From positions 1 to 64,000 of the forward strand of contig JAUCBJ010000602.1 in NCBI GenBank assembly GCA_032718475.1: 64,000 nt of DNA, in the 5' to 3' direction. A model generated the notes under the pieces. The model saw only the letters and a list, made by a program, of their open reading frames with translations. It was not told where the DNA came from and did no database searches. Made by a program: the position numbers and the translations under genes. Position 1 is the first letter of the stretch. Each line of letters starts with the position of its first letter. This document shows, one piece after another, positions 1 to 43,394 of the stretch. The DNA comes from Nemertoderma westbladi (taxonomy: Eukaryota > Animalia > Xenacoelomorpha).

Positions 1-3000
1 TACATAAAGAACTCGTTTTGATTAAGTTTAGCAGCGCCACCGAACAGGTACATAACGAACTCGTTTTGTTTAGGTTTAGCAGCGCCACCGAACGGGTACA
101 TAACGAACTCGTGTTGTTTAGGTTTAGCAACGCCACCGAACGGGTACATAAAGAACTCGTTTTGTTTAGGTTTAGCAGCGCCACCGAACGGGTACATAAA
201 GAACTCGTTTTGATTAGGTTTAGCAGCGCCACCGAACGGGTACATAAAGAACTCGTTTTGTTTAGGTTTAGCAGCGCCACCGAACGGGTACATAACGAAC
301 TCGTTTTGTTTAGGTTTAGCAGCGCCACCGAGCGGGTACATAAAGAACTCGTTTTGTTTAAGTTTAGCAGCGCCACCGAACGGGTACATAAAGAACTCGT
401 GTTGTTTAAGTTTAGCAGCGCCACCGAACGGGTACATAACGAACTCGTGTTGTTTAGGTTTAGCAACGCCACCGAACGGGTACATAAAGAACTCGTTTTG
501 ATTAGGTTTAGCAGCGCCACCGAACGGGTACATAAAGAACTCGTTTTGTTTAGGTTTAGCAGCGCCACCGAACGGGTACATAAAGAACTCGTTTTGTTTA
601 GGTTTAGCAGCGCCACCGAACGGGTACATAACGAACTCGTGTTGTTTAAGTTTAGCAGCGCCACCGAACGGGTACATAACGAACTCGTTTTGATTAGGTT
701 TAGCAGCGCCACCGAACGGGTACATAAAGAACTCGTGTTGTTTAAGTTTAGCAGCGCCACCGAACGGGTACATAAAGAACTCGTTTTGTTTAAGTTTAGC
801 AGCGCCACCGACCGGGTACATAAAGAACTCGTTTTGTTTAAGTTTAGCAGCGCCACCGAACGGGTACATAAAGAACTCGTTTTGATTAAGTTTAGCAGCG
901 CCACCGAACAGGTACATAACGAACTCGTTTTGTTTAGGTTTAGCAGCGCCACCGAAGGGGTACATAACGAACTCGTGTTGTTTAGGTTTAGCAACGCCAC
1001 CGTGCGGGTACATAAAGAACTCGTTTTGTTTAAGTTTAGCAGCGCCACCGAACGGGTACATAAAGAACTCGTTTTGATTAGGTTTAGCAGCGCCACCGAA
1101 CGGGTACATAAAGAACTCGTTTTGTTTAGGTTTAGCAGCGCCACCGAACGGGTACATAACGAACTCGTTTTGTTTAGGTTTAGCAGCGCCACCGTGCGGG
1201 TACATAAAGAACTCGTTTTGTTTAAGTTTAGCAGCGCCACCGAACGGGTACATAAAGAACTCGTGTTGTTTAAGTTTAGCAGCGCCACCGAACGGGTACA
1301 TAACGAACTCGTGTTGTTTAGGTTTAGCAACGCCACCGAACGGGTACATAAAGAACTCGTTTTGATTAGGTTTAGCAGCGCCACCGAACGGGTACATAAA
1401 GAACTCGTTTTGTTTAGGTTTAGCAGCGCCACCGAAGGGGTACATAAAGAACTCGTTTTGTTTAGGTTTAGCAGCGCCACCGAACGGGTACATAACGAAC
1501 TCGTGTTGTTTAAGTTTAGCAGCGCCACCGAACGGGTACATAACGAACTCGTTTTGTTTAGGTTTAGCAGCGCCACCGAACGGGTACATAACGAACTCGT
1601 GTTGTTTAAGTTTAGCAGCGCCACCGAACGGGTACATAAAGAACTCGTTTTGTTTAAGTTTAGCAGCGCCACCGACCGGGTACATAAAGAACTCGTTTTG
1701 TTTAAGTTTAGCAGCGCCACCGAACGGGTACATAACGAACTCGTGTTGTTTAGGTTTAGCAACGCCACCGAACGGGTACATAAAGAACTCATTTTGTTTA
1801 AGTTTAGCAGCGCCACCGAACGGGTACATAACGAACTCGTTTTGATTAGGTTTAGCAGCGCCACCGAACGGGTACATAAAGAACTCGTTTTGATTAGGTT
1901 TAGCAGCGCCACCGAACGGGTACATAACGAACTCGTTTTGATTAGGTTTAGCAGCGCCACCGAACGGGTACATAACGAACTCGTTTTGTTTAGGTTTAGC
2001 AACGCCACCGAACGGGTACATAAAGAAGTCGTTTTGATTAAGTTTAGCAGCGCCACCGAACGGGTACATAAAGAACTCGTTTTGTTTAGGTTTAGCAGCG
2101 CCACCGAACGGGTACATAAAGAACTCGTTTTGTTTAGGTTTAGCAGCGCCACCGAACGGGTACATAAAGAACTCGTTTTGATTAGGTTTAGCAGCGCCAC
2201 CGAACGGGTACATAAAGAACTCGTTTTGTTTAGGTTTAGCAGCGCCACCGAACGGGTACATAAAGAACTCGTTTTGTTTAGGTTTAGCAGCGCCACCGAA
2301 CGGGTACATAACGAACTCGTTTTGATTAGGTTTAGCAGCGCCACCGAACGGGTACATAACGAACTCGTTTTGATTAGGTTTAGCAGCGCCACCGAACGGG
2401 TACATAACGAACTCGTTTTGATTAGGTTTAGCAGCGCCACCGAACGGGTACATAACGAACTCGTTTTGATTAGGTTTAGCAGCGCCACCGAACGGGTACA
2501 TAACGAACTCGTTTTGATTAGGTTTAGCAGCGCCACCGAACGGGTACATAAAGAACTCGTTTTGATTAGGTTTAGCAGCGCCACCGAAGGGGTACATAAC
2601 GAACTCGTGTTGTTTAGGTTTAGCAACGCCACCGTGCGGGTACATAAAGAACTCGTTTTGTTTAAGTTTAGCAACGCCACCGTGCGGGTACATAAAGAAC
2701 TCGTTTTGTTTAAGTTTAGCAGCGCCACCGAACGGGTACATAAAGAACTCGTTTTGTTTAAGTTTAGCAGCGCCACCGAACGGGTACATAACGAACTCGT
2801 TTTGATTAGGTTTAGCAGCGCCACCGAAGGGGTACATAAAGAACTCGTTTTGTTTAGGTTTAGCAGCGCCACCGAACGGGTACATAAAGAACTCGTTTTG
2901 ATTAAGTTTAGCAGCGCCACCGAACGGGTACATAAAGGAGTCGTTTTGATTAAGTTTAGCAGCGCCACCGAACAGGTACATAAATAAGTCGTTTTGATTA

Positions 3001-6000
3001 AGTTTAGCAGCGCCACCGAACGGGTACATAAAGAACTCGTTTTGTTTAGGTTTAGCAACGCCACCGAACGGGTACATAAAGAACTCGTTTTGTTTAAGTT
3101 TAGCAGCGCCACCGAACAGGTACATAAAGAACTCGTTTTGATTAAGTTTAGCAGCGCCACCGAACGGGTACATAAAGAACTCGTTTTGATTAAGTTTAGC
3201 AGCGCCACCGAACGGGTACATAAAGAACTCGTTTTGTTTAGGTTTAGCAGCGCCACCGAACAGGTACATAAAGAACTCGTTTTGATTAAGTTTAGCAGCG
3301 CCACCGAACGGGTACATAAAGAACTCGTTTTGTTTAGGTTTAGCAGCGCCACCGAACAGGTACATAAATAAGTCGTTTTGATTAAGTTTAGCAGCGCCAC
3401 CGAACGGGTACATAAAGAACTCGTTTTGATTAAGTTTAGCAGCGCCACCGAACGGGTACATAAAGAACTCGTTTTGTTTAGGTTTAGCAGCGCCACCGAA
3501 CAGGTACATAAAGAACTCGTTTTGATTAAGTTTAGCAGCGCCACCGAACGGGTACATAAAGAACTCGTTTTGATTAAGTTTAGCAGCGCCACCGAACGGG
3601 TACATAAAGGAGTCGTTTTGATTAAGTTTAGCAGCGCCACCGAACAGGTACATAAATAAGTCGTTTTGATTAAGTTTAGCAGCGCCACCGAACGGGTACA
3701 TAAAGAACTCGTTTTGTTTAGGTTTAGCAACGCCACCGAACGGGTACATAAAGAACTCGTTTTGTTTAAGTTTAGCAGCGCCACCGAACAGGTACATAAA
3801 GAACTCGTTTTGATTAAGTTTAGCAGCGCCACCGAACGGGTACATAAAGAACTCGTTTTGATTAAGTTTAGCAGCGCCACCGAACGGGTACATAAAGAAC
3901 TCGTTTTGTTTAGGTTTAGCAGCGCCACCGAACAGGTACATAAAGAACTCGTTTTGATTAAGTTTAGCAGCGCCACCGAACGGGTACATAAAGAACTCGT
4001 TTTGTTTAGGTTTAGCAGCGCCACCGAACAGGTACATAAATAAGTCGTTTTGATTAAGTTTAGCAGCGCCACCGAACGGGTACATAAAGAACTCGTTTTG
4101 ATTAAGTTTAGCAGCGCCACCGAACGGGTACATAAAGAACTCGTTTTGTTTAGGTTTAGCAGCGCCACCGAACAGGTACATAAAGAACTCGTTTTGATTA
4201 AGTTTAGCAGCGCCACCGAACGGGTACATAAAGAACTCGTTTTGATTAAGTATAGCAGCGCCACCGAACGGGTACATAAAGAACTCGTTTTGTTTAGGTT
4301 TAGCAGCGCCACCGAAGGGGTACATAACGAACTCGTGTTGTTTAGGCTTAGCAACGCCACCGTGCGGGTACATAAAGAACTCATTTTGTTTAAGTTTAGC
4401 AGCGCCACCGAACGGGTACATAACGAACTCGTTTTGATTAGGTTTAGCAGCGCCACCGAACGGGTACATAAAGAACTCGTTTTGTTTAGGTTTAGCAGCG
4501 CCACCGAACGGGTACATAAAGAACTCGTTTTGATTAAGTTTAGCAGCGCCACCGAACGGGTACATAAAGAACTCGTTTTGTTTAGGTTTAGCAGCGCCAC
4601 CGAACGGGTACATAACGAACTCGTGTTGTTTAAGTTTAGCAGCGCCACCGAACGGGTACATAACGAACTCGTTTTGATTAGGTTTAGCAGCGCCACCGAA
4701 CGGGTACATAAAGAACTCGTTTTGTTTAGGTTTAGCAGCGCCACCGAAGGGGTACATAACGAACTCGTGTTGTTTAAGTTTAGCAGCGCCACCGAACGGG
4801 TACATAAAGAACTCGTTTTGTTTAAGTTTAGCAGCGCCACCGACCGGGTACATAAAGAACTCATTTTGTTTAAGTTTAGCAGCGCCACCGAACGGGTACA
4901 TAACGAACTCGTGTTGTTTAGGTTTAGCAACGCCACCGAACGGGTACATAAAGAACTCGTTTTGATTAGGTTTAGCAGCGCCACCGAACGGGTACATAAC
5001 GAACTCGTTTTGATTAGGTTTAGCAGCGCCACCGAACGGGTACATAACGAACTCGTTTTGTTTAGGTTTAGCAACGCCACCGAACGGGTACATAAAGAAG
5101 TCGTTTTGATTAAGTTTAGCAGCGCCACCGAACGGGTACATAAAGAACTCGTTTTGTTTAGGTTTAGCAGCGCCACCGAACGGGTACATAAAGAACTCGT
5201 TTTGTTTAGGTTTAGCAGCGCCACCGAACGGGTACATAAAGAACTCGTTTTGATTAGGTTTAGCAGCGCCACCGAACGGGTACATAAAGAACTCGTTTTG
5301 TTTAGGTTTAGCAGCGCCACCGAACGGGTACATAAAGAACTCGTTTTGTTTAGGTTTAGCAGCGCCACCGAACGGGTACATAACGAACTCGTTTTGATTA
5401 GGTTTAGCAGCGCCACCGAACGGGTACATAACGAACTCGTTTTGATTAGGTTTAGCAGCGCCACCGAACGGGTACATAACGAACTCGTTTTGATTAGGTT
5501 TAGCAGCGCCACCGAACGGGTACATAACGAATTCGTTTTGATTAGGTTTAGCAGCGCCACCGAACGGGTACATAACGAACTCGTTTTGATTAGGTTTAGC
5601 AGCGCCACCGAACGGGTACATAAAGAACTCGTTTTGATTAGGTTTAGCAGCGCCACCGAAGGGGTACATAACGAACTCGTGTTGTTTAGGTTTAGCAACG
5701 CCACCGTGCGGGTACATAAAGAACTCGTTTTGTTTAAGTTTAGCAACGCCACCGTGCGGGTACATAAAGAACTCGTTTTGTTTAAGTTTAGCAGCGCCAC
5801 CGAACGGGTACATAAAGAACTCGTTTTGTTTAGGTTTAGCAGCGCCACCGAACGGGTACATAACGAACTCGTTTTGATTAGGTTTAGCAGCGCCACCGAA
5901 CGGGTACATAAAGAACTCGTTTTGATTAGGTTTAGCAGCGCCACCGAACAGGTACATAAAGAACTCGTTTTGTTTAGGTTTAGCAGCGCCACCGAACGGG

Positions 6001-9000
6001 TACATAAAGAACTCGTTTTGTTTAGGTTTAGCAGCGCCACCGAAGGGGTACATAAAGAACTCGTTTTGTTTAGGTTTAGCAGCGCCACCGAACAGGTACA
6101 TAAATAAGTCGTTTTGATTAAGTTTAGCAGCGCCACCGAACAGGTACATAAAGAACTCGTTTTGTTTAGGTTTAGCAGCGCCACCGAACGGGTACATAAA
6201 GAACTCGTTTTGATTAAGTTTAGCAGCGCCACCGAACAGGTACATAAAGAACTCGTTTTGTTTAGGTTTAGCAGCGCCACCGAACGGGTACATAAAGAAC
6301 TCGTTTTGTTTAGGTTTAGCAGCGCCACCGAAGGGGTACATAAAGAACTCGTTTTGTTTAGGTTTAGCAGCGCCACCGAACAGGTACATAAATAAGTCGT
6401 TTTGATTAAGTTTAGCAGCGCCACCGAACAGGTACATAAAGAACTCGTTTTGTTTAGGTTTAGCAGCGCCACCGAACGGGTACATAAAGAACTCGTTTTG
6501 ATTAAGTTTAGCAGCGCCACCGAACAGGTACATAAAGAACTCGTTTTGTTTAGGTTTAGCAGCGCCACCGAACGGGTACATAAAGAACTCGTTTTGTTTA
6601 GGTTTAGCAGCGCCACCGAAGGGGTACATAAAGAACTCGTTTTGTTTAGGTTTAGCAGCGCCACCGAACAGGTACATAAATAAGTCGTTTTGATTAAGTT
6701 TAGCAGCGCCACCGAACAGGTACATAAAGAACTCGTTTTGTTTAGGTTTAGCAGCGCCACCGAACGGGTACATAAAGAACTCGTTTTGATTAAGTTTAGC
6801 AGCGCCACCGAACAGGTACATAAAGAACTCGTTTTGTTTAGGTTTAGCAGCGCCACCGAACGGGTACATAAAGAACTCGTTTTGATTAAGTTTAGCAGCG
6901 CCACCGAACAGGTACATAAAGAACTCGTTTTGTTTAGGTTTAGCAGCGCCACCGAACGGGTACATAAAGAACTCGTTTTGATTAAGTTTAGCAGCGCCAC
7001 CGAACGGGTACATAAAGAACTCGTTTTGATTAAGTATAGCAGCGCCACCGAACAGGTACATAAAGAACTCGTTTTGATTAAGTTTAGCAGCGCCACCGAA
7101 CAGGTACATAAAGAACTCGTTTTGTTTAGGTTTAGCAGCGCCACCGAACGGGTACATAAATAAGTCGTTTTGATTAAGTTTAGCAGCGCCACCGAACGGG
7201 TACATAAAGAACTCGTTTTGATTAAGTTTAGCAGCGCCACCGAACGGGTACATAAAGAACTCGTTTTGTTTAGGTTTAGCAGCGCCACCGAACAGGTACA
7301 TAAAGAACTCGTTTTGATTAAGTTTAGCAGCGCCACCGAACGGGTACATAAAGAACTCGTTTTGATTAAGTTTAGCAGCGCCACCGAACGGGTACATAAA
7401 GGAGTCGTTTTGATTAAGTTTAGCAGCGCCACCGAACAGGTACATAAAGAACTCGTTTTGATTAAGTTTAGCAGCGCCACCGAACGGGTACATAAAGAAC
7501 TCGTTTTGTTTAGGTTTAGCAGCGCCACCGAACGGGTACATAAAGAACTCGTTTTGTTTAAGTTTAGCAGCGCCACCGAACAGGTACATAAAGAACTCGT
7601 TTTGATTAAGTTTAGCAGCGCCACCGAACGGGTACATAAAGAACTCGTTTTGATTAAGTTTAGCAGCGCCACCGAACGGGTACATAAAGAACTCGTTTTG
7701 TTTAGGTTTAGCAGCGCCACCGAACAGGTACATAAAGAACTCGTTTTGATTAAGTTTAGCAGCGCCACCGAACGGGTACATAAAGAACTCGTTTTGTTTA
7801 GGTTTAGCAGCGCCACCGAACAGGTACATAAATAAGTCGTTTTGATTAAGTTTAGCAGCGCCACCGAACGGGTACATAAAGAACTCGTTTTGATTAAGTT
7901 TAGCAGCGCCACCGAACGGGTACATAAAGAACTCGTTTTGTTTAGGTTTAGCAGCGCCACCGAACAGGTACATAAAGAACTCGTTTTGATTAAGTTTAGC
8001 AGCGCCACCGAACGGGTACATAAAGAACTCGTTTTGATTAAGTATAGCAGCGCCACCGAACGGGTACATAAAGAACTCGTTTTGTTTAGGTTTAGCAGCG
8101 CCACCGAAGGGGTACATAACGAACTCGTGTTGTTTAGGCTTAGCAACGCCACCGTGCGGGTACATAAAGAACTCATTTTGTTTAAGTTTAGCAGCGCCAC
8201 CGAACGGGTACATAACGAACTCGTTTTGATTAGGTTTAGCAGCGCCACCGAACGGGTACATAAAGAACTCGTTTTGTTTAGGTTTAGCAGCGCCACCGAA
8301 CGGGTACATAAAGAACTCGTTTTGATTAAGTTTAGCAGCGCCACCGAACGGGTACATAAAGAACTCGTTTTGTTTAGGTTTAGCAGCGCCACCGAACGGG
8401 TACATAACGAACTCGTGTTGTTTAAGTTTAGCAGCGCCACCGAACGGGTACATAACGAACTCGTTTTGATTAGGTTTAGCAGCGCCACCGAACGGGTACA
8501 TAAAGAACTCGTTTTGTTTAGGTTTAGCAGCGCCACCGAAGGGGTACATAACGAACTCGTGTTGTTTAAGTTTAGCAGCGCCACCGAACGGGTACATAAA
8601 GAACTCGTTTTGTTTAAGTTTAGCAGCGCCACCGACCGGGTACATAAAGAACTCATTTTGTTTAAGTTTAGCAGCGCCACCGAACGGGTACATAACGAAC
8701 TCGTGTTGTTTAGGTTTAGCAACGCCACCGAACGGGTACATAAAGAACTCGTTTTGATTAGGTTTAGCAGCGCCACCGAACGGGTACATAACGAACTCGT
8801 TTTGATTAGGTTTAGCAGCGCCACCGAACGGGTACATAACGAACTCGTTTTGTTTAGGTTTAGCAACGCCACCGAACGGGTACATAAAGAAGTCGTTTTG
8901 ATTAAGTTTAGCAGCGCCACCGAACGGGTACATAAAGAACTCGTTTTGTTTAGGTTTAGCAGCGCCACCGAACGGGTACATAAAGAACTCGTTTTGTTTA

Positions 9001-12000
9001 GGTTTAGCAGCGCCACCGAACGGGTACATAAAGAACTCGTTTTGATTAGGTTTAGCAGCGCCACCGAACGGGTACATAAAGAACTCGTTTTGTTTAGGTT
9101 TAGCAGCGCCACCGAACGGGTACATAAAGAACTCGTTTTGTTTAGGTTTAGCAGCGCCACCGAACGGGTACATAACGAACTCGTTTTGATTAGGTTTAGC
9201 AGCGCCACCGAACGGGTACATAACGAACTCGTTTTGATTAGGTTTAGCAGCGCCACCGAACGGGTACATAACGAACTCGTTTTGATTAGGTTTAGCAGCG
9301 CCACCGAACGGGTACATAACGAATTCGTTTTGATTAGGTTTAGCAGCGCCACCGAACGGGTACATAACGAACTCGTTTTGATTAGGTTTAGCAGCGCCAC
9401 CGAACGGGTACATAAAGAACTCGTTTTGATTAGGTTTAGCAGCGCCACCGAAGGGGTACATAACGAACTCGTGTTGTTTAGGTTTAGCAACGCCACCGTG
9501 CGGGTACATAAAGAACTCGTTTTGTTTAAGTTTAGCAACGCCACCGTGCGGGTACATAAAGAACTCGTTTTGTTTAAGTTTAGCAGCGCCACCGAACGGG
9601 TACATAAAGAACTCGTTTTGTTTAGGTTTAGCAGCGCCACCGAACGGGTACATAACGAACTCGTTTTGATTAGGTTTAGCAGCGCCACCGAACGGGTACA
9701 TAAAGAACTCGTTTTGATTAGGTTTAGCAGCGCCACCGAACAGGTACATAAAGAACTCGTTTTGTTTAGGTTTAGCAGCGCCACCGAACGGGTACATAAA
9801 GAACTCGTTTTGTTTAGGTTTAGCAGCGCCACCGAAGGGGTACATAAAGAACTCGTTTTGTTTAGGTTTAGCAGCGCCACCGAACAGGTACATAAATAAG
9901 TCGTTTTGATTAAGTTTAGCAGCGCCACCGAACAGGTACATAAAGAACTCGTTTTGTTTAGGTTTAGCAGCGCCACCGAACGGGTACATAAAGAACTCGT
10001 TTTGATTAAGTTTAGCAGCGCCACCGAACAGGTACATAAAGAACTCGTTTTGTTTAGGTTTAGCAGCGCCACCGAACGGGTACATAAAGAACTCGTTTTG
10101 TTTAGGTTTAGCAGCGCCACCGAAGGGGTACATAAAGAACTCGTTTTGTTTAGGTTTAGCAGCGCCACCGAACAGGTACATAAATAAGTCGTTTTGATTA
10201 AGTTTAGCAGCGCCACCGAACAGGTACATAAAGAACTCGTTTTGTTTAGGTTTAGCAGCGCCACCGAACGGGTACATAAAGAACTCGTTTTGATTAAGTT
10301 TAGCAGCGCCACCGAACAGGTACATAAAGAACTCGTTTTGTTTAGGTTTAGCAGCGCCACCGAACGGGTACATAAAGAACTCGTTTTGTTTAGGTTTAGC
10401 AGCGCCACCGAAGGGGTACATAAAGAACTCGTTTTGTTTAGGTTTAGCAGCGCCACCGAACAGGTACATAAATAAGTCGTTTTGATTAAGTTTAGCAGCG
10501 CCACCGAACAGGTACATAAAGAACTCGTTTTGTTTAGGTTTAGCAGCGCCACCGAACGGGTACATAAAGAACTCGTTTTGATTAAGTTTAGCAGCGCCAC
10601 CGAACAGGTACATAAAGAACTCGTTTTGTTTAGGTTTAGCAGCGCCACCGAACGGGTACATAAAGAACTCGTTTTGATTAAGTTTAGCAGCGCCACCGAA
10701 CAGGTACATAAAGAACTCGTTTTGTTTAGGTTTAGCAGCGCCACCGAACGGGTACATAAAGAACTCGTTTTGATTAAGTTTAGCAGCGCCACCGAACGGG
10801 TACATAAAGAACTCGTTTTGATTAAGTATAGCAGCGCCACCGAACAGGTACATAAAGAACTCGTTTTGATTAAGTTTAGCAGCGCCACCGAACAGGTACA
10901 TAAAGAACTCGTTTTGTTTAGGTTTAGCAGCGCCACCGAACGGGTACATAAAGAACTCGTTTTGATTAAGTTTAGCAGCGCCACCGAACAGGTACATAAA
11001 GAACTCGTTTTGTTTAGGTTTAGCAGCGCCACCGAACGGGTACATAAAGAACTCGTTTTGATTAAGTTTAGCAGCGCCACCGAACGGGTACATAAAGAAC
11101 TCGTTTTGATTAAGTATAGCAGCGCCACCGAACAGGTACATAAAGAACTCGTTTTGATTAAGTTTAGCAGCGCCACCGAACAGGTACATAAAGAACTCGT
11201 TTTGATTAAGTTTAGCAGCGCCACCGAACAGGTACATAAAGAACTCGTTTTGATTAAGTTTAGCAGCGCCACCGAACAGGTACATAAAGAACTCGTTTTG
11301 TTTAGGTTTAGCAGCGCCACCGAACGGGTACATAAAGAACTCGTTTTGATTAAGTTTAGCAGCGCCACCGAACGGGTACATAAAGAACTCGTTTTGATTA
11401 AGTTTAGCAGCGCCACCGAACGGGTACATAAAGAACTCGTTTTGATTAAGTATAGCAGCGCCACCGAACGGGTACATAAAGAACTCGTTTTGTTTAGGTT
11501 TAGCAGTGCCACCGAAGGGGTACATAACGAACTCGTGTTGTTTAGGCTTAGCAACGCCACCGTGCGGGTACATAAAGAACTCATTTTGTTTAAGTTTAGC
11601 AGCGCCACCGAACGGGTACATAACGAACTCGTTTTGATTAGGTCTAGCAGCGCCACCGAACGGGTACATAAAGAACTCGTTTTGTTTAGGTTTAGCAGCG
11701 CCACCGAACGGGTACATAAAGAACTCGTTTTGATTAAGTTTAGCAGCGCCACCGAACGGGTACATAAAGAAGTCGTTTTGATTAAGTTTAGCAGCGCCAC
11801 CGAACGGGTACATAACGAACTCGTGTTGTTTAGGTTTAGCAGCGCCACCAAGCGGGTACATAACGAACTCGTTTTGTTTAAGTTTAGCAGCGCCACCGAA
11901 CGGGTACATAAAGAACTCGTTTTGTTTAAGTTTAGCAGCGCCACCGAGCGGGTACATAAAGAACTCGTTTTGTTTAAGTTTAGCAGCGCCACCGAACGGG

Positions 12001-12961
12001 TACATAAAGAACTCATTTTGTTTAAGTTTAGCAGCGCCACCGAAGGGGTACATAACGAACTCGTGTTGTTTAGGTTTAGCAGCGCCACCGAACGGGTACA
12101 TAACGAACTCGTTTTGTTTAAGTTTAGCAGCGCCACCGAACGGGTACATAAAAAACTCGTTTTGTTTAGGTTTAGCAGCGCCACCGAACGGGTACATAAC
12201 AAACTCGTTTTGTTTAGGTTTAGCAGCGCCACCGAACGGGTACATAAAGAACTCGTTTTGTTTAGGTTTAGCAGCGCCACCGAACGGGTATATAAAGAAC
12301 TCGTTTTGTTTAAGTTTAGCAGCGCCACCGAACGGGTACATAAAGAACTCGTTTTGATTAAGTTTAGCAGCGCCACCGAACGGGTACATAAAGAACTCGT
12401 TTTGATTAAGTTTAGCAGCGCCACCGAACGGGTACATAACGAACTCGTGTTGTTTAGGTTTAGCAGCGCCACCGAACGGGTACATAACGAACTCGTTTTG
12501 TTTAGGTTTAGCAGCGCCACCGAACGGGTACATAACAAACTCGTTTTGTTTAGGTTTAGCAGCGCCACCGAACGGGTACATAACGAACTCGTTTTGTTTA
12601 GGTTTAGCAGCGCCACCGAACGGGTACATAACAAACTCGTTTTGTTTAGGTTTAGCAGCGCCACCGAACGGGTACATAACGAACTCGTGTTGTTTAGGTT
12701 TAGCAGCGCCACCGAACGAGTACATAACGAACTCGTTTTGTTTAGGTTTAGCAGCGCCACCGAACGGGTACATAACAAACTCGTTTTGTTTAGGTTTAGC
12801 AGCGCCACCGAACGGGTACATAACAAACTCGTTTTGTTTAGGTTTAGCAGCGCCACCGAACGGGTACATAACGAACTCGTTTTGTTTAGGTTTAGCAGCG
12901 CAACCGAGCGGGTACATAACGAACTCGTTTTGTTTAGGTTTAGCAGCGCAACCGAGCGGGT
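1..12961 (+). repeat. 48-bp tandem array (~270 copies, continues off the 5' edge) made of the dvl 3' splice-site junction
   Basis: Unit ACATAAAGAACTCGTTTTGTTTAG|GTTTAGCAGCGCCACCGAACGGGT = 24 nt intron + 24 nt exon; the last copy runs directly into the exon at 12938. Confidence 0.97.
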
Positions 12962-13086
12962 GCAGCAGTCGCGGTTTCGCAGTAAGATGAGGAAGAGACG
13001 CCGTCGTCCACCTCCCAGACTCCCAACCCGCCAGCTGGTAGGTCCCAGTGGGGCTATGAGTGTCAACTCATACTCATCTATAACCG
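12938..13086 (+). CDS. dvl: Dishevelled exon, basic region between DIX and PDZ
   Basis: tttag|G TTT AGC...ACC G|gtaagc, phase 2 to 1, 149 nt; (R)FSSATERVQQSRFRSKMRKRRRRPPPRLPTRQLVGPSGAMSVNSYSSIT resembles Dvl RFSSSTEQS...RRRR...SFSSIT. Confidence 0.9.
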
Positions 13087-29620: not shown

Positions 29621-29720
29621 TCTGAATTTAAAACGCCTCACAATAAATATTACATTATCAATCTCCATTGATACTATCAGAGTGACATAAGTGAAACAAA
29701 TATTATTTATTTATTATCAG

Positions 29721-29885: not shown

Positions 29886-32858
29886 GTACGTTGCGGTGCT
29901 ATTACGTACTGTCCGACGTTGCAGGTACGTTGCGGTGCTATTACGTACTGTCCGACGTTGCAGGTACGTTACAGTGCTATTACGTACTGTCCGACGTTGC
30001 AGGCAGGTTCAGTCTACAGTGCTATTACGTACTGTCCGACGTTGCAGGTACGTTACAGTGCTATTACGTACTGTCCGACGTTGCAGGTACGTTACAGTGC
30101 TATTACGTACTGTCCGACGTTGCAGGTACGTTACAGTGCTATTGCGTACTGTCCGACGTTGCAGGTACGTTACAGTGCTATTACGTACTGTCCGACGTTA
30201 CAGGTACGTTACAGTGCTATTACGTACTGTCCGACGTTACAGGTACGTTACAGTGCTATTACGTAATACGTACTGTCCGACGTTACAGGTACGTTACTGT
30301 GCTATTACGTACTGTCCGACGTTATAGGTACGTTACAGTGCTATTACGTACTGTCCGACGTTACAGGTACGTTACAGTGCTATTACGTACTGTCCGACGT
30401 TACAGGTACGTTACAGTGCTATTACGTACTGTCCGACGTTACAGGTACGTTACAGTGCTATTACGTACTGTCCGACGTTACAGATACGTTACAGTGCTAT
30501 TACGTACTGTCCGACGTTACAGGTACGTTACAGTGCTATTACGTACTGTCCGACGTTACAGGTACGTTACAGTGCTATTACGTACTGTCCGACGTTACAG
30601 GTACGTTACAGTGCTATTACGTACTGTCCGACGTTACAGGTATGTTACAGTGCTATTACGTACTGTCCGACGTTACAGGTACGTTACAGTGCTATTACGT
30701 ACTGTCCGACGTTACAGGTACGTTACAGTGCTATTACGTACTGTCCGACGTTACAGGTACGTTACAGTGCTATTACGTACTGTCCGACGTTACAGGTACG
30801 TTACAGTGCTATTACGTACTGTCCGACGTTACAGGTACGTTACAGTGCTATTACGTACTGTCCGACGTTACAGGTACGTTACAGTGCTATTACGTACTGT
30901 CCGACGTTACAGGTACGTTACAGTGCTATTACGTACTGTCCGACGTTGCAGGTACGTTACGTCTACAGTGCTATTACGTACTGTCCGACGTTACAGGTAC
31001 GTTACAGTGCTATTACGTACTGTCCGACGTTACAGGTACGTTACAGTGCTACTACGTACTGTCCGACGTTACAGGTACGTTACAGTGCTATTACGTACTG
31101 TCCGACGTTACAGGTACGTTACAGTGCTATTACGTACTGTCCGACGTTGCAGGTACGTTACGTCTACAGTGCTATTACGTACTGTCCGACGTTACAGGTA
31201 CGTGACAGTGCTATTACGTACTGTCCGACGTTACAGGTACGTTACAGTGCTATTACGTACTGTCCGACGTTGCAGGTACGTTACGTCTACAGTGCTATTA
31301 CGTACTGTCCGACGTTACAGGTACGTTACAGTGCTATTACGTACTGTCCGACGTTGCAGGTACGTTACAGTGCTATTACGTACTGTCCGACGTTACAGGT
31401 ACGTTACAGTGCTATTACGTACTGTCCGACATTACAGGTACGTTACAGTGCTAGTACGTACTGTCGGACGTTGCAGGTACGTTACGTCTACAGTGCTATT
31501 ACGTACTGTCCGACGTTACAGGTACGTTACAGTGCTATTACGTACTGTCCGACGTTACAGGTACGTTACAGTGCTATTACGTACTGTCCGACGTTGCAGG
31601 TACGTTACAGTGCTATTACGTACTGTCCGACGTTACAGGTACGTTACAGTGCTATTACGTACTGTCCGACGTTGCAGGTACGTTACGTCTACAGTGCTAT
31701 TACGTACTGTCCGACGTTACAGGTACGTTACAGTGCTATTACGTACTGTCCGACGTTACAGGTACGTTACAGTGCTATTACGTACTGTCCGACGTTGCAG
31801 GTACGTTACGTCTACAGTGCTATTACGTACTGTCCGACGTTACAGGTACGTTGCAGTGCTATTACGTGCTGTCCGACGTTATAGGTACGTTACAGTGCTA
31901 TTACGTACTGTCCGACGTTACAGGTACGTTACAGTGCTATTACGTACTGTCCGACGTTACAGGTACGTTACAGTGCTATTACGTACTGTCCGACGTTACA
32001 GGTACGTTACAGTGCTATTACGTACTGTCCGACGTTGCAGGTACGTTACGTCTACAGTGCTATTACGTACTGTTCGACGTTACAGGTACGTTACAGTGCT
32101 ATTACGTACTGTCCGACGTTACAGGTACGTTACAGTGCTATTACGTACTGTCCGACGTTACAGGTACGTTACAGTGCTATTACGTACTGTCCGACGTTAC
32201 AGGTACGTTACAGTGCTATTACGTACTGTCCGACGTTACAGGTACGTTACAGTGCTATTACGTACTGTCCGACGTTGCAGGTACGTTACGTCTACAGTGC
32301 TATTACGTACTGTCCGACGATACAGGTACGTTACAGTGCTATTACGTACTGTCCGACGTTGCAGGCAGGTTACGTCTACAGTGCTATCACGTACTGTCCG
32401 ACGTACTGTCCGACGTTACAGGTACGTTACAGTGCTATTACGTACTGTCCGACGTTACAGGTACGTTACAGTGCTATTACGTACTGTCCTACGTTACAGG
32501 TACGTTACAGTGCTATTACGTACTGTCCGACGTTGCAGGTACGTTACGTCTACAGTGCTATTACGTACTGTCCGACGTTGCAGGTACGTTACGTACTGTC
32601 CGACGTTGCAGGCAGGTTACGTCTACAGTGCTATTACGTACTGTCCGACGTTACAGGTACGTTACAGTGCTATTACGTTCTGTCCGACGTTACAGGTACG
32701 TTACAGTGCTATTACGTATTCTCCGACGTTGCAGGTACGTTACAGTGCTATTACGTACCGTCTGACGTTACAGGTACGTTACAGTGCTATTACGTACTGT
32801 CCGACGTTACAGGTACGTTACAGTGCTATTACGTACTGTCCGACGTTACAGGTACGTT
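29854..32858 (+). repeat. 39-bp tandem array (~77 copies) made of the DEP exon donor junction
   Basis: Unit ACAGTGCTATTACGTACTGTCCGACGTT(G/A)CAG|GTACGTT = 32 nt exon + 7 nt intron; the first copy is the real exon end. Confidence 0.97.
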
Positions 32859-33053
32859 ATGTCTTAGGTGGAACTAGTTTGATTGTTTATGGATTGGATC
32901 AGTGGGTTTACTGTTTTGGTCGGTTGGATTACTCTTTGAGTCGTGGGGTTACTGCTTGGCTCTGTGTGGGTTTACTATTTTGGAAGGCTATAACGTTTTA
33001 ATTACAAAATATCTATCAAAATAATCTCAATCATTCTCAATAAACTCGTTTAG

Positions 33054-33161
33054 GTCATATGGGGGATCTCTCATTGGCCGGTGGTATGGAGCAATCGGGC
33101 GATCATATGGACAACCTGCCTCAACTTCCTCCACAGTACGGCTGGGCACCAAATTATGCAA
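33054..33161 (+). CDS. dvl: Dishevelled exon, post-DEP region
   Basis: tttag|GT CAT...GCA A|gtaagt, phase 1 to 1, 108 nt; GHMGDLSLAGGMEQSGDHMDNLPQLPPQYGWAPNYA resembles the Dvl MxxLSL...D.L.PLP...W segment. Confidence 0.85.
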
Positions 33162-33259: not shown

Positions 33260-33436
33260 CGGCCCATTACTACCAACCCCATTCTGCCGGATACTCCAGC
33301 TACGCAGTTGACTATGGCGATATCGACAGCTGTTCCACCAATACTTACAACTCTGTACCACAAGAGCAGTATGGTGGTACACGGGAAAGGGACACAAAGG
33401 GCACAGGCAGAAGTCACCACTCTGTAGATAGTGCTG
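33260..33436 (+). CDS. dvl: Dishevelled exon, C-terminal low-complexity region
   Basis: tacag|CG GCC...GCT G|gttagt, phase 1 to 1, 177 nt; AHYYQPHSAGYSSYAVDYG...GRSHHSVDSA; phases fit both neighbouring exons. Confidence 0.82.
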
Positions 33437-36400
33437 GTTAGTAATCAACTCTAGTAGACAGAAGTCACCGCTCTGTAGATAGTGCTGGTTAGTAATCAAC
33501 TCTAGTAGACAGAAGTCACCACTCTGTAGATAGTGCTGGTTAGTAATCAACTCTAGTAGACAGAAGTCACCACTCTGTAGATAGTGCTGGTTAGTAATCA
33601 ACTCTAGTAGACAGAAGTCACCACTCTGTAGATAGTGCTGGTTAGTAATCAACTCTAGTAGACAGAAGTCACCACTCTGTAGATAGTGCTGGTTAGTAAT
33701 CAACTCTAGTAAACAGAAGTCACCACTCTGTAGATAGTGCTGGTTAGTAATCAACTCTAGTAGACAGAAGTCACCACTCTGTAGATAGTGCTGGTTAGTA
33801 ATCAACTCTAGTAGACAGAAGTCACCACTCTGTAGATAGTGCTGGTTAGTAATCAACTCTAGTAGACAGAAGTCACCACTCTGTAGATAGTGCTGGTTAG
33901 TAATCAACTCTAGTAGACAGAAGTCACCACTCTGTAGATAGTGCTGGTTAGTAATCAACTCTAGTAGACATAAGTCACCACTCTGTAGATAGTGCTGGTT
34001 AGTAATCAACTCTAGTAGACAGAAGTCACCACTCTGTAGATAGTGCTGGTTAGTAATCAACTCTAGTAGACAGAAGTCACCGCTCTGTAGATAGTGCTGG
34101 TTAGTAATCAACTCTAGTAGACAGAAGTCACCACTCTGTAGATAGTGCTGGTTAGTAATCAACTCTAGTAGACAGAAGTCACCGCTCTGTAGATAGTGCT
34201 GGTTAGTAATCAACTCTAGTAGACAGAAGTCACCACTCTGTAGATAGTTCTGGTTAGTAATCAACTCTAGTAGACAGAAGTCACCACTCTGTAGATAGTG
34301 CTGGTTAGTAATCAACTCTAGTAGACAGAAGTCACCACTCTGTAGATAGTTCTGGTTAGTAATCAACTCTAGTAGACAGAAGTCACCACTCTGTAGATAG
34401 TGCTGGTTAGTAATCAACTCTAGTAGACAGAAGTCACCACTCTGTAGATAGTGCTGGTTAGTAATCAACTCTAGTAGACAGAAGTCACCACTCTGTAGAT
34501 AGTTCTGGTTAGTAATCAACTCTAGTAGACAGAAGTCACCACTCTGTAGATAGTGCTGGTTAGTAATCAACTCTAGTAGACAGAAGTCACCACTCTGTAG
34601 ATAGTGCTGGTTAGTAATCAACTCTAGTAGACAGAAGTCACCACTCTGTAGATAGTGCTGGTTAGTAATCAACTCTAGTAGACAGAAGTCACCACTCTGT
34701 AGATAGTGCTGGTTAGTAATCCACTCTAGTAGACAGAAGTCACCACTCTGTAGATAGTGCTGGTTAGTAATCAACTCTAGTAGACAGAAGTCACCACTCT
34801 GTAGATAGTGCTGGTTAGTAATCAACTCTAGTAGACAGAAGTCACCACTCTGTAGATAGTGCTGGTTAGTAATCAACTCTAGTAGACAGAAGTCACCACT
34901 CTGTAGATAGTGCTGGTTAGTAATCAACTCTAGTAGACAGAAGTCACCGCTCTGTAGATAGTGCTGGTTAGTAATCAACTCTAGTAGACAGAAGTCACCG
35001 CTCTGTAGATAGTGCTGGTTAGTAATCAACTCTAGTAGACAGAAGTCACCGCTCTGTAGATAGTGCTGGTTAGTAATCAACTCTATTAGACAGAAGTCAC
35101 CACTCTGTAGATAGTGCTGGTTAGTAATCAACTCTAGTAGACAGAAGTCACCACTCTGTAGATAGTGCTGGTTAGTAATCAACTCTAGTAGACAGAAGTC
35201 ACCACTCTGTAGATAGTGCTGGTTAGTAATCAACTCTAGTAGACAGAAGTCACCACTCTGTAGATAGTGCTGGTTAGTAATCAACTCTAGTAGACAGAAG
35301 TCACCGCTCTGTAGATAGTGCTGGTTAGTAATCAACTCTAGTAGACAGAAGTCACCGCTCTGTAGATAGTGCTGGTTAGTAATCAACTCTATTAGACAGA
35401 AGTCACCACTCTGTAGATAGTGCTGGTTAGTAATCAACTCTAGTAGACAGAAGTCACCACTCTGTAGATAGTGCTGGTTAGTAATCAACTCTAGTAGACA
35501 GAAGTCACCACTCTGTAGATAGTGCTGGTTAGTAATCAACTCTAGTAGACAGAAGTCACCACTCTGTAGATAGTGCTGGTTAGTAATCAACTCTAGTAGA
35601 CAGAAGTCACCACTCTGTAGATAGTGCTGGTTAGTAATCAACTCTAGTAGACAGAAGTCACCACTCTGTAGATAGTGCTGGTTAGTAATCAACTCTAGTA
35701 GACAGAAGTCACCACTCTGTAGATAGTGCTGGTTAGTAATCAACTCTAGTAGACAGAAGTCACCACTCTGTAGATAGTGCTGGTTAGTAATCAACTCTAG
35801 TAGACAGAAGTCACCACTCTGTAGATAGTGCTGGTTAGTAATCAACTCTAGTAGACAGAAGTCACCACTCTGTAGATAGTGCTGGTTAGTAATCAACTCT
35901 AGTAGACAGAAGTCACCACTCTGTAGATAGTGCTGGTTAGTAATCAACTCTAGTAGACAGAAGTCACCACTCTGTAGATAGTGCTGGTTAGTAATCAACT
36001 CTAGTAGACAGAAGTCACCACTCTGTAGATAGTGCTGGTTAGTAATCAACTCTAGTAGACAGAAGTCACCACTCTGTAGATAGTGCTGGTTAGTAATCAA
36101 CTCTAGTAGACAGAAGTCACCGCTCTGTAGATAGTGCTGGTTAGTAATCAACTCTAGTAGACAGAAGTCACCGCTCTGTAGATAGTGCTGGTTAGTAATC
36201 AACTCTAGTAGACAGAAGTCACCACTCTGTAGATAGTGCTGGTTAGTAATCAACTCTAGTAGACAGAAGTCACCGCTCTGTAGATAGTGCTGGTTAGTAA
36301 TCAACTCTAGTAGACAGAAGTCACCGCTCTGTAGATAGTGCTGGTTAGTAATCAACTCTAGTAGACAGAAGTCACCACTCTGTAGATAGTGCTGGTTAGT

Positions 36401-39400
36401 AATCAACTCTAGTAGACAGAAGTCACCACTCTGTAGATAGTGCTGGTTAGTAATCAACTCTAGTAGACAGAAGTCACCGCTCTGTAGATAGTGCTGGTTA
36501 GTAATCAACTCTAGTAGACAGAAGTCACCACTCTGTAGATAGTGCTGGTTAGTAATCAACTCTAGTAGACAGAAGTCACCGCTCTGTAGATAGTGCTGGT
36601 TAGTAATCAACTCTAGTAGACAGAAGTCACCACTCTGTAGATAGTGCTGGTTAGTAATCAACTCTAGTAGACAGAAGTCACCACTCTGTAGATAGTGCTG
36701 GTTAGTAATCAACTCTAGTAGACAGAAGTCACCACTCTGTAGATAGTGCTGGTTAGTAATCAACTCTAGTAGACAGAAGTCACCACTCTGTAGATAGTGC
36801 TGGTTAGTAATCAACTCTAGTAGACAGAAGTCACCACTCTGTAGATAGTGCTGGTTAGTAATCAACTCTAGTAGACAGAAGTCACCACTCTGTAGATAGT
36901 GCTGGTTAGTAATCAACTCTAGTAGACAGAAGTCACCACTCTGTAGATAGTGCTGGTTAGTAATCAACTCTAGTAGACAGAAGTCACCACTCTGTAGATA
37001 GTGCTGGTTAGTAATCAACTCTAGTAGACAGAAGTCACCACTCTGTAGATAGTGCTGGTTAGTAATCAACTCTAGTAGACAGAAGTCACCACTCTGTAGA
37101 TAGTGCTGGTTAGTAATCAACTCTAGTAGACAGAAGTCACCACTCTGTAGATAGTGCTGGTTAGTAATCAACTCTAGTAGACAGAAGTCACCACTCTGTA
37201 GATAGTGCTGGTTAGTAATCAACTCTAGTAGACAGAAGTCACCACTCTGTAGATAGTGCTGGTTAGTAATCAACTCTAGTAGACAGAAGTCACCACTCTG
37301 TAGATAGTGCTGGTTAGTAATCAACTCTAGTAGACAGAAGTCACCACTCTGTAGATAGTGCTGGTTAGTAATCAACTCTAGTAGACAGAAGTCACCAGCT
37401 CTGTAGATAGTGCTGGTTAGTAATCAACTCTAGTAGACAGAAGTCACCACTCTGTAGATAGTGCTGGTTAGTAATCAACTCTAGTAGACAGAAGTCACCA
37501 CTCTGTAGATAGTGCTGGTTAGTAATCAACTCTAGTAGACAGAAGTCACCACTCTGTAGATAGTGCTGGTTAGTAATCAACTCTAGTAGACAGAAGTCAC
37601 CACTCTGTAGATAGTGCTGGTTAGTAATCAACTCTAGTAGACAGAAGTCACCACTCTGTAGATAGTGCTGGTTAGTAATCAACTCTAGTAGACAGAAGTC
37701 ACCACTCTGTAGATAGTGCTGGTTAGTAATCAACTCTAGTAGACAGAAGTCACCACTCTGTAGATAGTGCTGGTTAGTAATCAACTCTAGTAGACAGAAG
37801 TCACCACTCTGTAGATAGTGCTGGTTAGTAATCAACTCTAGTAGACAGAAGTCACCACTCTGTAGATAGTGCTGGTTAGTAATCAACTCTAGTAGACAGA
37901 AGTCACCACTCTGTAGATAGTGCTGGTTAGTAATCAACTCTAGTAGACAGAAGTCACCACTCTGTAGATAGTGCTGGTTAGTAATCAACTCTAGTAGACA
38001 GAAGTCACCACTCTGTAGATAGTGCTGGTTAGTAATCAACTCTAGTAGACAGAAGTCACCACTCTGTAGATAGTGCTGGTTAGTAATCAACTCTAGTAGA
38101 CAGAAGTCACCACTCTGTAGATAGTGCTGGTTAGTAATCAACTCTAGTAGACAGAAGTCACCACTCTGTAGATAGTGCTGGTTAGTAATCAACTCTAGTA
38201 GACAGAAGTCACCACTCTGTAGATAGTGCTGGTTAGTAATCAACTCTAGTAGACAGAAGTCACCACTCTGTAGATAGTGCTGGTTAGTAATCAACTCTAG
38301 TAGACAGAAGTCACCACTCTGTAGATAGTGCTGGTTAGTAATCAACTCTAGTAGACAGAAGTCACCACTCTGTAGATAGTGCTGGTTAGTAATCAACTCT
38401 AGTAGACAGAAGTCACCACTCTGTAGATAGTGCTGGTTAGTAATCAACTCTAGTAGACAGAAGTCACCACTCTGTAGATAGTGCTGGTTAGTAATCAACT
38501 CTAGTAGACAGAAGTCACCACTCTGTAGATAGTGCTGGTTAGTAATCAACTCTAGTAGACAGAAGTCACCACTCTGTAGATAGTGCTGGTTAGTAATCAA
38601 CTCTAGTAGACAGAAGTCACCACTCTGTAGATAGTGCTGGTTAGTAATCAACTCTAGTAGACAGAAGTCACCACTCTGTAGATAGTGCTGGTTAGTAATC
38701 AACTCTAGTAGACAGAAGTCACCACTCTGTAGATAGTGCTGGTTAGTAATCAACTCTAGTAGACAGAAGTCACCACTCTGTAGATAGTGCTGGTTAGTAA
38801 TCAACTCTAGTAGACAGAAGTCACCACTCTGTAGATAGTGCTGGTTAGTAATCAACTCTAGTAGACAGAAGTCACCACTCTGTAGATAGTGCTGGTTAGT
38901 AATCAACTCTAGTAGACAGAAGTCACCACTCTGTAGATAGTGCTGGTTAGTAATCAACTCTAGTAGACAGAAGTCACCACTCTGTAGATAGTGCTGGTTA
39001 GTAATCAACTCTAGTAGACAGAAGTCACCACTCTGTAGATAGTGCTGGTTAGTAATCAACTCTAGTAGACAGAAGTCACCACTCTGTAGATAGTGCTGGT
39101 TAGTAATCAACTCTAGTAGACAGAAGTCACCACTCTGTAGATAGTGCTGGTTAGTAATCAACTCTAGTAGACAGAAGTCACCACTCTGTAGATAGTGCTG
39201 GTTAGTAATCAACTCTAGTAGACAGAAGTCACCACTCTGTAGATAGTGCTGGTTAGTAATCAACTCTAGTAGACAGAAGTCACCACTCTGTAGATAGTGC
39301 TGGTTAGTAATCAACTCTAGTAGACAGAAGTCACCACTCTGTAGATAGTGCTGGTTAGTAATCAACTCTAGTAGACAGAAGTCACCACTCTGTAGATAGT

Positions 39401-42400
39401 GCTGGTTAGTAATCAACTCTAGTAGACAGAAGTCACCACTCTGTAGATAGTGCTGGTTAGTAATCAACTCTAGTAGACAGAAGTCACCACTCTGTAGATA
39501 GTGCTGGTTAGTAATCAACTCTAGTAGACAGAAGTCACCACTCTGTAGATAGTGCTGGTTAGTAATCAACTCTAGTAGACAGAAGTCACCACTCTGTAGA
39601 TAGTGCTGGTTAGTAATCAACTCTAGTAGACAGAAGTCACCACTCTGTAGATAGTGCTGGTTAGTAATCAACTCTATTAGACATAAGTCACCACTCTGTA
39701 GATAGTGCTGGTTAGTAATCAACTCTAGTAGACAGAAGTCACCACTCTGTAGATAGTGCTGGTTAGTAATCAACTCTAGTAGACAGAAGTCACCACTCTG
39801 TAGATAGTGCTGGTTAGTAATCAACTCTAGTAGACAGAAGTCACCACTCTGTAGATAGTGCTGGTTAGTAATCAACTCTAGTAGACAGAAGTCACCACTC
39901 TGTAGATAGTGCTGGTTAGTAATCAACTCTAGTAGACAGAAGTCACCGCTCTGTAGATAGTGCTGGTTAGTAATCAACTCTAGTAGACAGAAGTCACCAC
40001 TCTGTAGATAGTGCTGGTTAGTAATCAACTCTAGTAGACAGAAGTCACCACTCTGTAGATAGTGCTGGTTAGTAATCAACTCTAGTAGACAGAAGTCACC
40101 GCTCTGTAGATAGTGCTGGTTAGTAATCAACTCTAGTAGACAGAAGTCACCACTCTGTAGATAGTGCTGGTTAGTAATCAACTCTAGTAGACAGAAGTCA
40201 CCGCTCTGTAGATAGTGCTGGTTAGTAATCAACTCTAGTAGACAGAAGTCACCACTCTGTAGATAGTGCTGGTTAGTAATCAACTCTAGTAGACAGAAGT
40301 CACCACTCTGTAGATAGTGCTGGTTAGTAATCAACTCTAGTAGACAGAAGTCACCACTCTGTAGATAGTGCTGGTTAGTAATCAACTCTATTAGACATAA
40401 GTCACCACTCTGTAGATAGTGCTGGTTAGTAATCAACTCTAGTAGACAGAAGTCACCACTCTGTAGATAGTGCTGGTTAGTAATCAACTCTAGTAGACAG
40501 AAGTCACCACTCTGTAGATAGTGCTGGTTAGTAATCAACTCTAGTAGACATAAGTCACCACTCTGTAGATAGTGCTGGTTAGTAATCAACTCTAGTAGAC
40601 AGAAGTCACCACTCTGTAGATAGTGCTGGTTAGTAATCAACTCTAGTAGACATAAGTCACCACTCTGTAGATAGTGCTGGTTAGTAATCAACTCTAGTAG
40701 ACAGAAGTCACCACTCTCTAGATAGTGCTGGTTAGTAATCAACTCTAGTAGACATAAGTCACCACTCTGTAGATAGTGCTGGTTAGTAATCAACTCTAGT
40801 AGACAGAAGTCACCACTCTGTAGATAGTGCTGGTTAGTAATCAACTCTAGTAGACAGAAGTCACCACTCTGTAGATAGTGCTGGTTAGTAATCAACTCTA
40901 GTAGACAGAAGTCACCACTCTGTAGATAGTGCTGGTTAGTAATCAACTCTAGTAGACAGAAGTCACCGCTCTGTAGATAGTGCTGGTTAGTAATCAACTC
41001 TAGTAGACAGAAGTCACCACTCTGTAGATAGTTCTGGTTAGTAATCAACTCTAGTAGACAGAAGTCACCACTCTGTAGATAGTGCTGGTTAGTAATCAAC
41101 TCTAGTAGACAGAAGTCACCACTCTGTAGATAGTGCTGGTTAGTAATCAACTCTATTAGACAGAAGTCACCACTCTGTAGATAGTTCTGGTTAGTAATCA
41201 ACTCTAGTAGACAGAAGTCACCACTCTGTAGATAGTGCTGGTTAGTAATCAACTCTAGTAGACAGAAGTCACCACTCTGTAGATAGTGCTGGTTAGTAAT
41301 CAACTCTAGTAGACAGAAGTCACCACTCTGTAGATAGTGCTGGTTAGTAATCAACTCTAGTAGACAGAAGTCACCACTCTGTAGATAGTGCTGGTTAGTA
41401 ATCAACTCTAGTAGACAGAAGTCACCACTCTGTAGATAGTGCTGGTTAGTAATCAACTCTATTAGACAGAAGTCACCACTCTGTAGATAGTTCTGGTTAG
41501 TAATCAACTCTAGTAGACAGAAGTCACCACTCTGTAGATAGTGCTGGTTAGTAATCAACTCTAGTAGACAGAAGTCACCACTCTGTAGATAGTGCTGGTT
41601 AGTAATCAACTCTATTAGACAGAAGTCACCACTCTGTAGATAGTTCTGGTTAGTAATCAACTCTAGTAGACAGAAGTCACCACTCTGTAGATAGTGCTGG
41701 TTAGTAATCAACTCTAGTAGACAGAAGTCACCACTCTGTAGATAGTGCTGGTTAGTAATCAACTCTAGTAGACAGAAGTCACCACTCTGTAGATAGTGCT
41801 GGTTAGTAATCAACTCTAGTAGACAGAAGTCACCACTCTGTAGATAGTGCTGGTTAGTAATCAACTCTATTAGACAGAAGTCACCACTCTGTAGATAGTT
41901 CTGGTTAGTAATCAACTCTAGTAGACAGAAGTCACCACTCTGTAGATAGTGCTGGTTAGTAATCAACTCTAGTAGACAGAAGTCACCACTCTGTAGATAG
42001 TGCTGGTTAGTAATCAACTCTAGTAGACAGAAGTCACCACTCTGTAGATAGTGCTGGTTAGTAATCAACTCTATTAGACAGAAGTCCCCACTCTGTAGAT
42101 AGTTCTGGTTAGTAATCAACTCTAGTAGACAGAAGTCACCACTCTGTAGATAGTGCTGGTTAGTAATCAACTCTACTAGACAGAAGTCACCACTCTGTAG
42201 ATAGTGCTGGTTAGTAATCAACTCTAGTAGACAGAAGTCACCACTCTGTAGATAGTGCTGGTTAGTAATCAACTCTAGTAGACAGAAGTCACCACTCTGT
42301 AGATAGTGCTGGTTAGTAATCAACTCTAGTAGACAGAAGTCACCACTCTGTAGATAGTGCTGGTTAGTAATCAACTCTAGTAGACAGAAGTCACCACTCT

Positions 42401-43394
42401 GTAGATAGTGCTGGTTAGTAATCAACTCTAGTAGACAGAAGTCACCACTCTGTAGATAGTGCTGGTTAGTAATCAACTCTAGTAGACAGAAGTCACCACT
42501 CTGTAGATAGTGCTGGTTAGTAATCAACTCTAGTAGACAGAAGTCACCACTCTGTAGATAGTGCTGGTTAGTAATCAACTCTAGTAGACAGAAGTCACCA
42601 CTCTGTAGATAGTGCTGGTTAGTAATCAACTCTAGTAGACAGAAGTCACCACTCTGTAGATAGTGCTGGTTAGTAATCAACTCTATTAGACAGAAGTCCC
42701 CACTCTGTAGATAGTTCTGGTTAGTAATCAACTCTAGTAGACAGAAGTCACCACTCTGTAGATAGTGCTGGTTAGTAATCAACTCTAGTAGACAGAAGTC
42801 ACCACTCTGTAGATAGTGCTGGTTAGTAATCAACTCTAGTAGACAGAAGTCACCACTCTGTAGATAGTGCTGGTTAGTAATCAACTCTAGTAGACAGAAG
42901 TCACCACTCTGTAGATAGTGCTGGTTAGTAATCAACTCTAGTAGACAGAAGTCACCACTCTGTAGATAGTGCTGGTTAGTAATCAACTCTATTAGACAGA
43001 AGTCCCCACTCTGTAGATAGTTCTGGTTAGTAATCAACTCTAGTAGACAGAAGTCACCACTCTGTAGATAGTGCTGGTTAGTAATCAACTCTAGTAGACA
43101 GAAGTCACCACTCTGTAGATAGTGCTGGTTAGTAATCAACTCTAGTAGACAGAAGTCACCACTCTGTAGATAGTGCTGGTTAGTAATCAACTCTATTAGA
43201 CAGAAGTCACCACTCTGTAGATAGTTCTGGTTAGTAATCAACTCTAGTAGACAGAAGTCACCACTCTGTAGATAGTGCTGGTTAGTAATCAACTCTAGTA
43301 GACAGAAGTCACCACTCTGTAGATAGTGCTGGTTAGTAATCAACTCTAGTAGACAGAAGTCACCGCTCTGTAGATAGTGCTGGTTAGTAATCAA
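33408..43394 (+). repeat. 51-bp tandem array (~196 copies) made of the exon donor junction
   Basis: Unit CAGAAGTCACCACTCTGTAGATAGTGCTG|GTTAGTAATCAACTCTAGTAGA = 29 nt exon + 22 nt intron; very homogeneous; fills almost the whole 10-kb intron. Confidence 0.97.

Follow-up and report, generated by a model that had tools for sequence, protein, structure and literature searches.

Mirage-type minisatellites at five splice junctions of the dvl gene of Nemertoderma westbladi

Minisatellites derived from exon–intron boundaries have been described in amphioxus (lancelet) under the name of mirages, with the alcohol dehydrogenase gene Adh3 and the globin genes BflGb6 and BflGb9 among their hosts (PMC3087553). 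Troponin C and PGBD5 are reported as further amphioxus hosts (PMC3902484). According to the published description, mirage units are 10–160 bp long, and BflGb6 contains 3–6 of them (PMC3087553). A comparable group is known from human genes, comprising the 37-bp VNTR of F7 intron 7 and minisatellites in 6-16, CBS, lamin B2 and PDGF. These are described as donor-side arrays of 5–25 units; the most upstream donor is used in F7, lamin B2 and PDGF, and a first-met choice of site was shown for human F7, whose silent pseudo-sites are described as functional, the next in line being activated when the first is mutated in minigenes (PMC1557585). Internal tandem repeats at exon–intron boundaries of human duplicated genes are described as giving rise to new introns or alternative transcripts (PMC2812944). 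A sequence-only reading of the locus studied here had known of no named system for its repeats; the mirages and the five human minisatellites had in fact already been published (PMC3087553, PMC1557585).

We analyzed a window of 64,000 nt (positions 1–64,000 of contig JAUCBJ010000602.1, assembly GCA_032718475.1, forward strand) and called its arrays with Tandem Repeats Finder. The gene carrying the arrays is dvl, with PDZ and DEP domains matched by Pfam. Its translated exons A–I, whose ends we set by reading the sequence, form an open C-terminal part of Dishevelled of 492–493 residues that is 52–63% identical to its best database relatives. The sequence is divergent and sits with acoel sequences, grouping with Hofstenia (98/96) on a long end branch, in a thinly sampled tree of 15 rows that has no molluscs, annelids, flatworms, echinoderms, tunicates or cnidarians and on which we do not rely. 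A probable short intron with strong donor and acceptor motifs lies in the 3' UTR at 43763–43816 (+), about 22 nt past the stop codon.

Four large arrays have units that straddle dvl splice sites (Table 1), and Tandem Repeats Finder places all four where the sequence-only reading had put them. Its copy numbers held for the 48-mer and 51-mer arrays (270 and 196), whereas its figures of ~27 and ~77 for the other two became 28 and 75 on counting. The 48-mer unit consists of 24 intron and 24 exon nt. As assembled, the arrays account for 26,872 extra bases of intron. Their units are unrelated to one another, as had been claimed: all six pairwise comparisons scored at shuffle level (p 0.29–0.94), which supports four independent origins. 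Within the window, none of the four was found outside its own array. Unit-to-unit divergence is 1.2–5.8%, with 98% matches within the 51-mer array and 45 distinct unit types in the 48-mer array. As regards the mirage feature that boundary units escape homogenization during concerted evolution, the terminal 48-mer copy is 3 nt off the commonest unit and the first 51-mer copy is identical to the commonest unit of its array. In the 48-mer array, 71 consecutive units are identical at a lag of 79 units; a block of 3.8 kb was recently duplicated, or the assembly produced the match.

Table 1. Arrays and dvl exons in the 64,000-nt window.
Feature	Positions	Strand	Details
48-mer acceptor array	1..12961	+	270 copies; open at the left edge of the window; last copy is the exon A acceptor (12938)
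37-mer acceptor array	13685..14700	+	28 copies; 13 exon nt per unit; last copy is the exon B acceptor (14688)
39-mer donor array	29854..32859	+	75 copies; 32 exon nt per unit; first copy is the exon F donor (29885)
51-mer donor array	33408..43394	+	196 copies; 29 exon nt per unit; first copy is the exon H donor (33436)
Degenerate 43-mer	22447..22559	+	2.7 copies; straddles the exon D donor; score reached by 0/1000 shuffles
21-mer intronic array	15051..15795	+	Stops 19 nt short of the exon C acceptor; junction origin rejected by test
25/41/66-mer intronic array	17458..22123	+	Straddles no site
47-mer intronic array	22781..29622	+	Begins 39 nt past the exon E donor; split by a LINE insertion; junction origin rejected by test
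dvl exon A	12938..13086	+	Basic region; both ends joined in X4
dvl exon B	14688..14820	+	First half of PDZ
dvl exon C	15815..16023	+	Second half of PDZ, copy 1
dvl exon C2	16578..16789	+	Second half of PDZ, copy 2
dvl exon D	22322..22474	+	Length fits X4 contig
dvl exon E	22610..22741	+	Start of DEP
dvl exon F	29721..29885	+	DEP
dvl exon G	33054..33161	+	GT..AG skip 33161 to 33260 in X4
dvl exon H	33260..33436	+	X4 contig evidence
dvl exon I, coding part	43487..43740	+	Stop codon at its end

The degenerate 43-mer at the exon D donor had escaped the sequence-only reading and is an older mirage. It brings the arrays to 5 of the 19 coding splice sites in view (two acceptors and three donors). The remaining dvl arrays gave a different result. 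When the 21-, 66- and 47-mer arrays were compared with the flanks of their nearest junctions, there was no significant likeness, the scores being reached by 744, 923, 269 and 1000 of 1000 shuffles. A junction origin was thus rejected for these three arrays and for two weak 21-mers (6/6 comparisons non-significant). Within the 47-mer array lies a LINE-like reverse-transcriptase open reading frame (~24345–26177, minus strand) that spans 629 aa between stops. The element, which we take to be RTE-like, carries a trinucleotide tail, and 7 nt of target sequence appear to be duplicated.

Other repeats occur outside the dvl coding span. At 44684–50362 and 57874–59689 there are a 42-mer of 136 copies with an acceptor-like motif and a 32-mer of 57 copies. 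On the minus strand, 33-mer and 17-mer arrays (51270–53189) with units reading CCAG|GTACTA lie by a possible 36-nt exon (53180–53215) and may be another donor mirage, in a neighboring minus-strand gene. This neighbor has a 590-codon open frame (54274–56046, minus strand) with a coding 18-mer array, a six-residue repeat of about 35 copies. Searches of four open reading frames of this gene against Pfam gave two weak matches, both below the cut-off. None of our counts includes the arrays of this neighbor.

Set beside the amphioxus mirages as described, the dvl units likewise span real exon–intron boundaries on both the acceptor and the donor side, have lengths (37, 39, 43, 48 and 51 nt) inside the reported range, and keep the AG or GT in many, though not all, copies while normal splicing is retained (PMC3087553). 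The dvl arrays share five of seven mirage features. They depart from the few units of BflGb6 in having 28–270 copies, in reaching at least 13 kb and in occurring five to a gene (PMC3087553). As in F7, the first unit of each donor array spans the donor and pseudo-sites then repeat downstream. The human kind is donor-side and short, whereas dvl has 74 and 195 donor decoys in addition to two acceptor arrays, which 5'-to-3' first-met scanning of the F7 type does not explain (PMC1557585). Minisatellite expansion at exon–intron boundaries is also shared with the human duplicated genes, but in dvl the intron positions are unchanged and only use of the terminal site is seen (PMC2812944). The kind of repeat is therefore known already, as mirages; what sets dvl apart from these accounts is scale and density, with as many as 270 copies and an array of 13 kb or more compared with 3–25 units.

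Evidence on which copy is spliced comes from contigs of a single sequencing run, X4; contigs drop rare forms. This run is labelled 'DNA?', yet its contigs are exon-only and skip from 33161 to 33260 at GT..AG, so we read them as spliced cDNA. A processed retrocopy is a less likely source because X4 has zero depth in the intron bins of the gene. One contig joins an unrelated upstream coding sequence to 12938, in the last 48-mer copy, and one joins exon A to 30 letters that are unique to 14688, in the last 37-mer copy. In a contig of 1,686 nt, exon H, ending at the first 51-mer copy, is joined to exon I. The same contig has 450 nt upstream of exon G, which is exactly exons D, E and F (153 + 132 + 165), and from this we infer use of the first donor copy in both the 39-mer and the 43-mer. 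For the 39-mer site the length is the evidence, as the 30 letters visible before exon G fit 17 of the 75 copies. The main spliced form thus uses the exon-adjacent copy, seen directly for three arrays and by exact length for the 39-mer, as the sequence-only reading had supposed. Regular splicing is likewise undisturbed for the main form in X4, although contigs cannot show minor forms. The statement that the protein is unaffected is also good for the main form; beyond it, the 48- and 39-nt lengths divide by three, and the closest decoys stay in frame with no stop. Transcripts made by low-level decoy use would not always be destroyed.

Exons C and C2 are a tandem pair. Each codes for the second half of PDZ, and 45 of 66 aligned residues are identical between them. 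Both are open and both have a length of 3n+2, so that including both would shift the frame; they are therefore predicted to be spliced in a mutually exclusive manner, which would give two PDZ variants. One X4 contig begins exactly at exon D, as a splicing branch would produce. A literature search for a duplicated Dvl PDZ exon pair found no title on such a pair among the matches listed.

The decoys are numerous and partly decayed. The AG is retained in 156/269 of the 48-mer decoys and 25/27 of the 37-mer decoys, and positions –3 to +6 of the donor are the same as at the true site in 66/74 of the 39-mer and 195/195 of the 51-mer decoys. The single acceptor used at exon A is preceded by 156 AG-intact decoys across 13 kb. 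Many decoys have exactly the sequence of the true site, so the choice among them must depend on context, and the sequence-only reading was right to ask how one site is picked. Selective weakening of the decoy acceptors was not indicated: the signal half of the unit carries 1.87 differences against 2.36 in the exon half, with 9 and 11 variable columns.

Our preferred explanation, to which we assign a probability of roughly 0.72, is that these are mirage minisatellites produced by ordinary local duplication in short introns, which then grew through unequal exchange and whose extra sites go unused in the main form seen. Duplications of 37–51 nt would have been frequent in this repeat-rich gene. 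Because the ancestral introns would have been short (65–932 nt when collapsed), approximately one duplication in five would be expected to overlap a splice site by chance. Tandem copying of a boundary unit, in simulation, spares the exon and its adjacent site and places all extra copies in the intron, so a straddling duplication would be tolerated. Slippage, unequal crossing-over and conversion may then have expanded and homogenized the arrays, as suggested by the 79-unit block and the low unit divergence. At the donors, the first-met site would be chosen, as in human F7. At the acceptors the decoys are transcribed first, and exon definition, in which an acceptor is paired with the nearest donor, here the nearest one downstream, is therefore the likely route. 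Of the earlier demand for strong exon definition, the need for a context-based choice of site is supported. It also fits duplication in short introns that dvl has three arrays just as large that straddle no site, with more downstream, and no function of the arrays is needed to explain them.

The alternative that deserves the most attention is that, in this lineage, tandem duplications arise or persist preferentially at splice junctions, which would make the mirages systematic rather than a by-product of short introns. Possible causes include exon-edge breaks linked to transcription or splicing, or the step in composition at the edge. We evaluated this with a null in which each array was collapsed to one unit and founders were placed at random, excluding wholly exonic positions. 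Collapsing reduced nine introns from 29,111 to 3,040 nt (65–932 nt each), a reconstruction within this gene and not orthologous data. For the seven clear arrays, four straddlers were seen against 1.53 expected (P 0.043); adding the degenerate 43-mer gave five against 1.75 (P 0.014), and leaving out the open intron gave three of six against 1.30 (P 0.116). Across all 48 null settings, P ranged from 0.116 to <0.001, the latter with stricter overlap and a long first intron. We dropped a null based on present-day intron lengths (0.02 per array), which overstated the enrichment about tenfold.

The resulting excess of straddlers, ~2.5–3-fold in one gene picked for showing the pattern, is a hint and not a demonstration. 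In favor of a junction bias are the arrays at 5 of 19 splice sites, an excess of 2.4–2.9-fold with the simplest null that rises when the null is made stricter, and the different ages of the arrays, from the degenerate 43-mer to the 51-mer with its 98% matches. Against it stand the single gene, the loss of significance once the open intron is removed, and the three large dvl arrays that straddle nothing. We consider such a bias unlikely on balance. The stronger version, in which a lineage bias in seeding or retaining junction duplications is a main route of intron expansion (from ~3 kb to >40 kb of dvl intron) and one acceptor is picked after 156 AG-intact copies over 13 kb, strikes us as doubtful too. 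Of the systematic, splice-site-focused process proposed by the sequence-only reading, what survives is an excess of ~2.5–3-fold, which is weak and comes from one gene chosen post hoc. The strict polarity of the arrays, which had been offered as evidence of a process, does not help. Copying of a boundary unit always leaves the original junction next to the exon (1000/1000 donor simulations, the acceptor case being the mirror image), so polarity is forced by tandem duplication and is uninformative about process. A search of mainly open-access literature found no genome-wide enrichment test of junction-spanning arrays, which does not establish that there is none.

It is very unlikely that the arrays are put to use, either as in-frame repeat insertions in Dvl or with AG|GT-like units serving as stepwise (recursive) splicing points. 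In favor of such use, two of the unit lengths, 48 and 39, divide by three, and both of these units contain AG followed by GT. Past its last in-frame stop, the 48-mer array still has 25 decoys with an intact AG, and in the 39-mer array the first nine decoys keep the phase and contain no stop. There is also a precedent in the two pseudo-sites reported to be used in human 6-16 and CBS (PMC1557585). Nevertheless, the X4 contigs contain only joins at terminal copies, 37 does not divide by three, and in the 51-mer a stop follows immediately after the donor. The 48-mer frame contains 12 in-frame stops and 113/269 decoys have lost the AG, while the phase of the 39-mer is broken by units of 46 and 28 nt. 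The same stops and phase breaks ruled out the arrays as long coding ORFs.

Sequencing runs bear on the arrays themselves. Eight runs were listed, none of them as RNA, of which five, from three studies, carry the last-exon stretch whole or in part. X1 may be the source and was not counted as support; X2 and X3 derive from sample S2 of a different study. The head-to-tail joint of the 51-mer, where the sequence goes back by 51, is present in X1, X2 and X3, and that of the 39-mer in X2. In X3, a contig connects exons G and H with the far end of the 39-mer array, and a second one, which shows no difference from the window, connects exon A and its intron with the last 48-mer unit. DNA from an independent study thus supports the 39-, 48- and 51-mer arrays; the DNA contigs did not cover the 37-mer array. 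X5 contributed two records of intronic repeat only. As regards allelic or somatic length instability, another mirage feature, repeat-to-flank depth differs between samples S1 and S2, but contig depths are not copy numbers. At the far edge of the 39-mer array there is a structural polymorphism: contigs of X1 and X2 join the array directly to 32947, without 32860–32946, while X3 has the form seen in the window. That assembly inflated arrays which are far shorter in actual chromosomes is most improbable, since the 71 identical 48-mer units and a 51-mer joint at ~33–35x flank depth in S2 against 196 copies (such depths not being copy numbers) are outweighed by the joints and array-to-gene contigs of the independent study, by the 45 distinct 48-mer unit types and by the allelic length differences expected of minisatellites.

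Among the published cases compared, dvl is the largest and densest example of mirages. It offers a natural substrate for studying the choice of a 3' splice site whose identical copies are transcribed before it, and could serve as an extreme natural test of acceptor-side exon definition. Junction arrays of this kind mislead gene prediction and read mapping. If a genome-wide bias toward junctions were true, it would suggest that splicing or transcription is mutationally tied to local duplication, and that introns can grow and be gained by this route.
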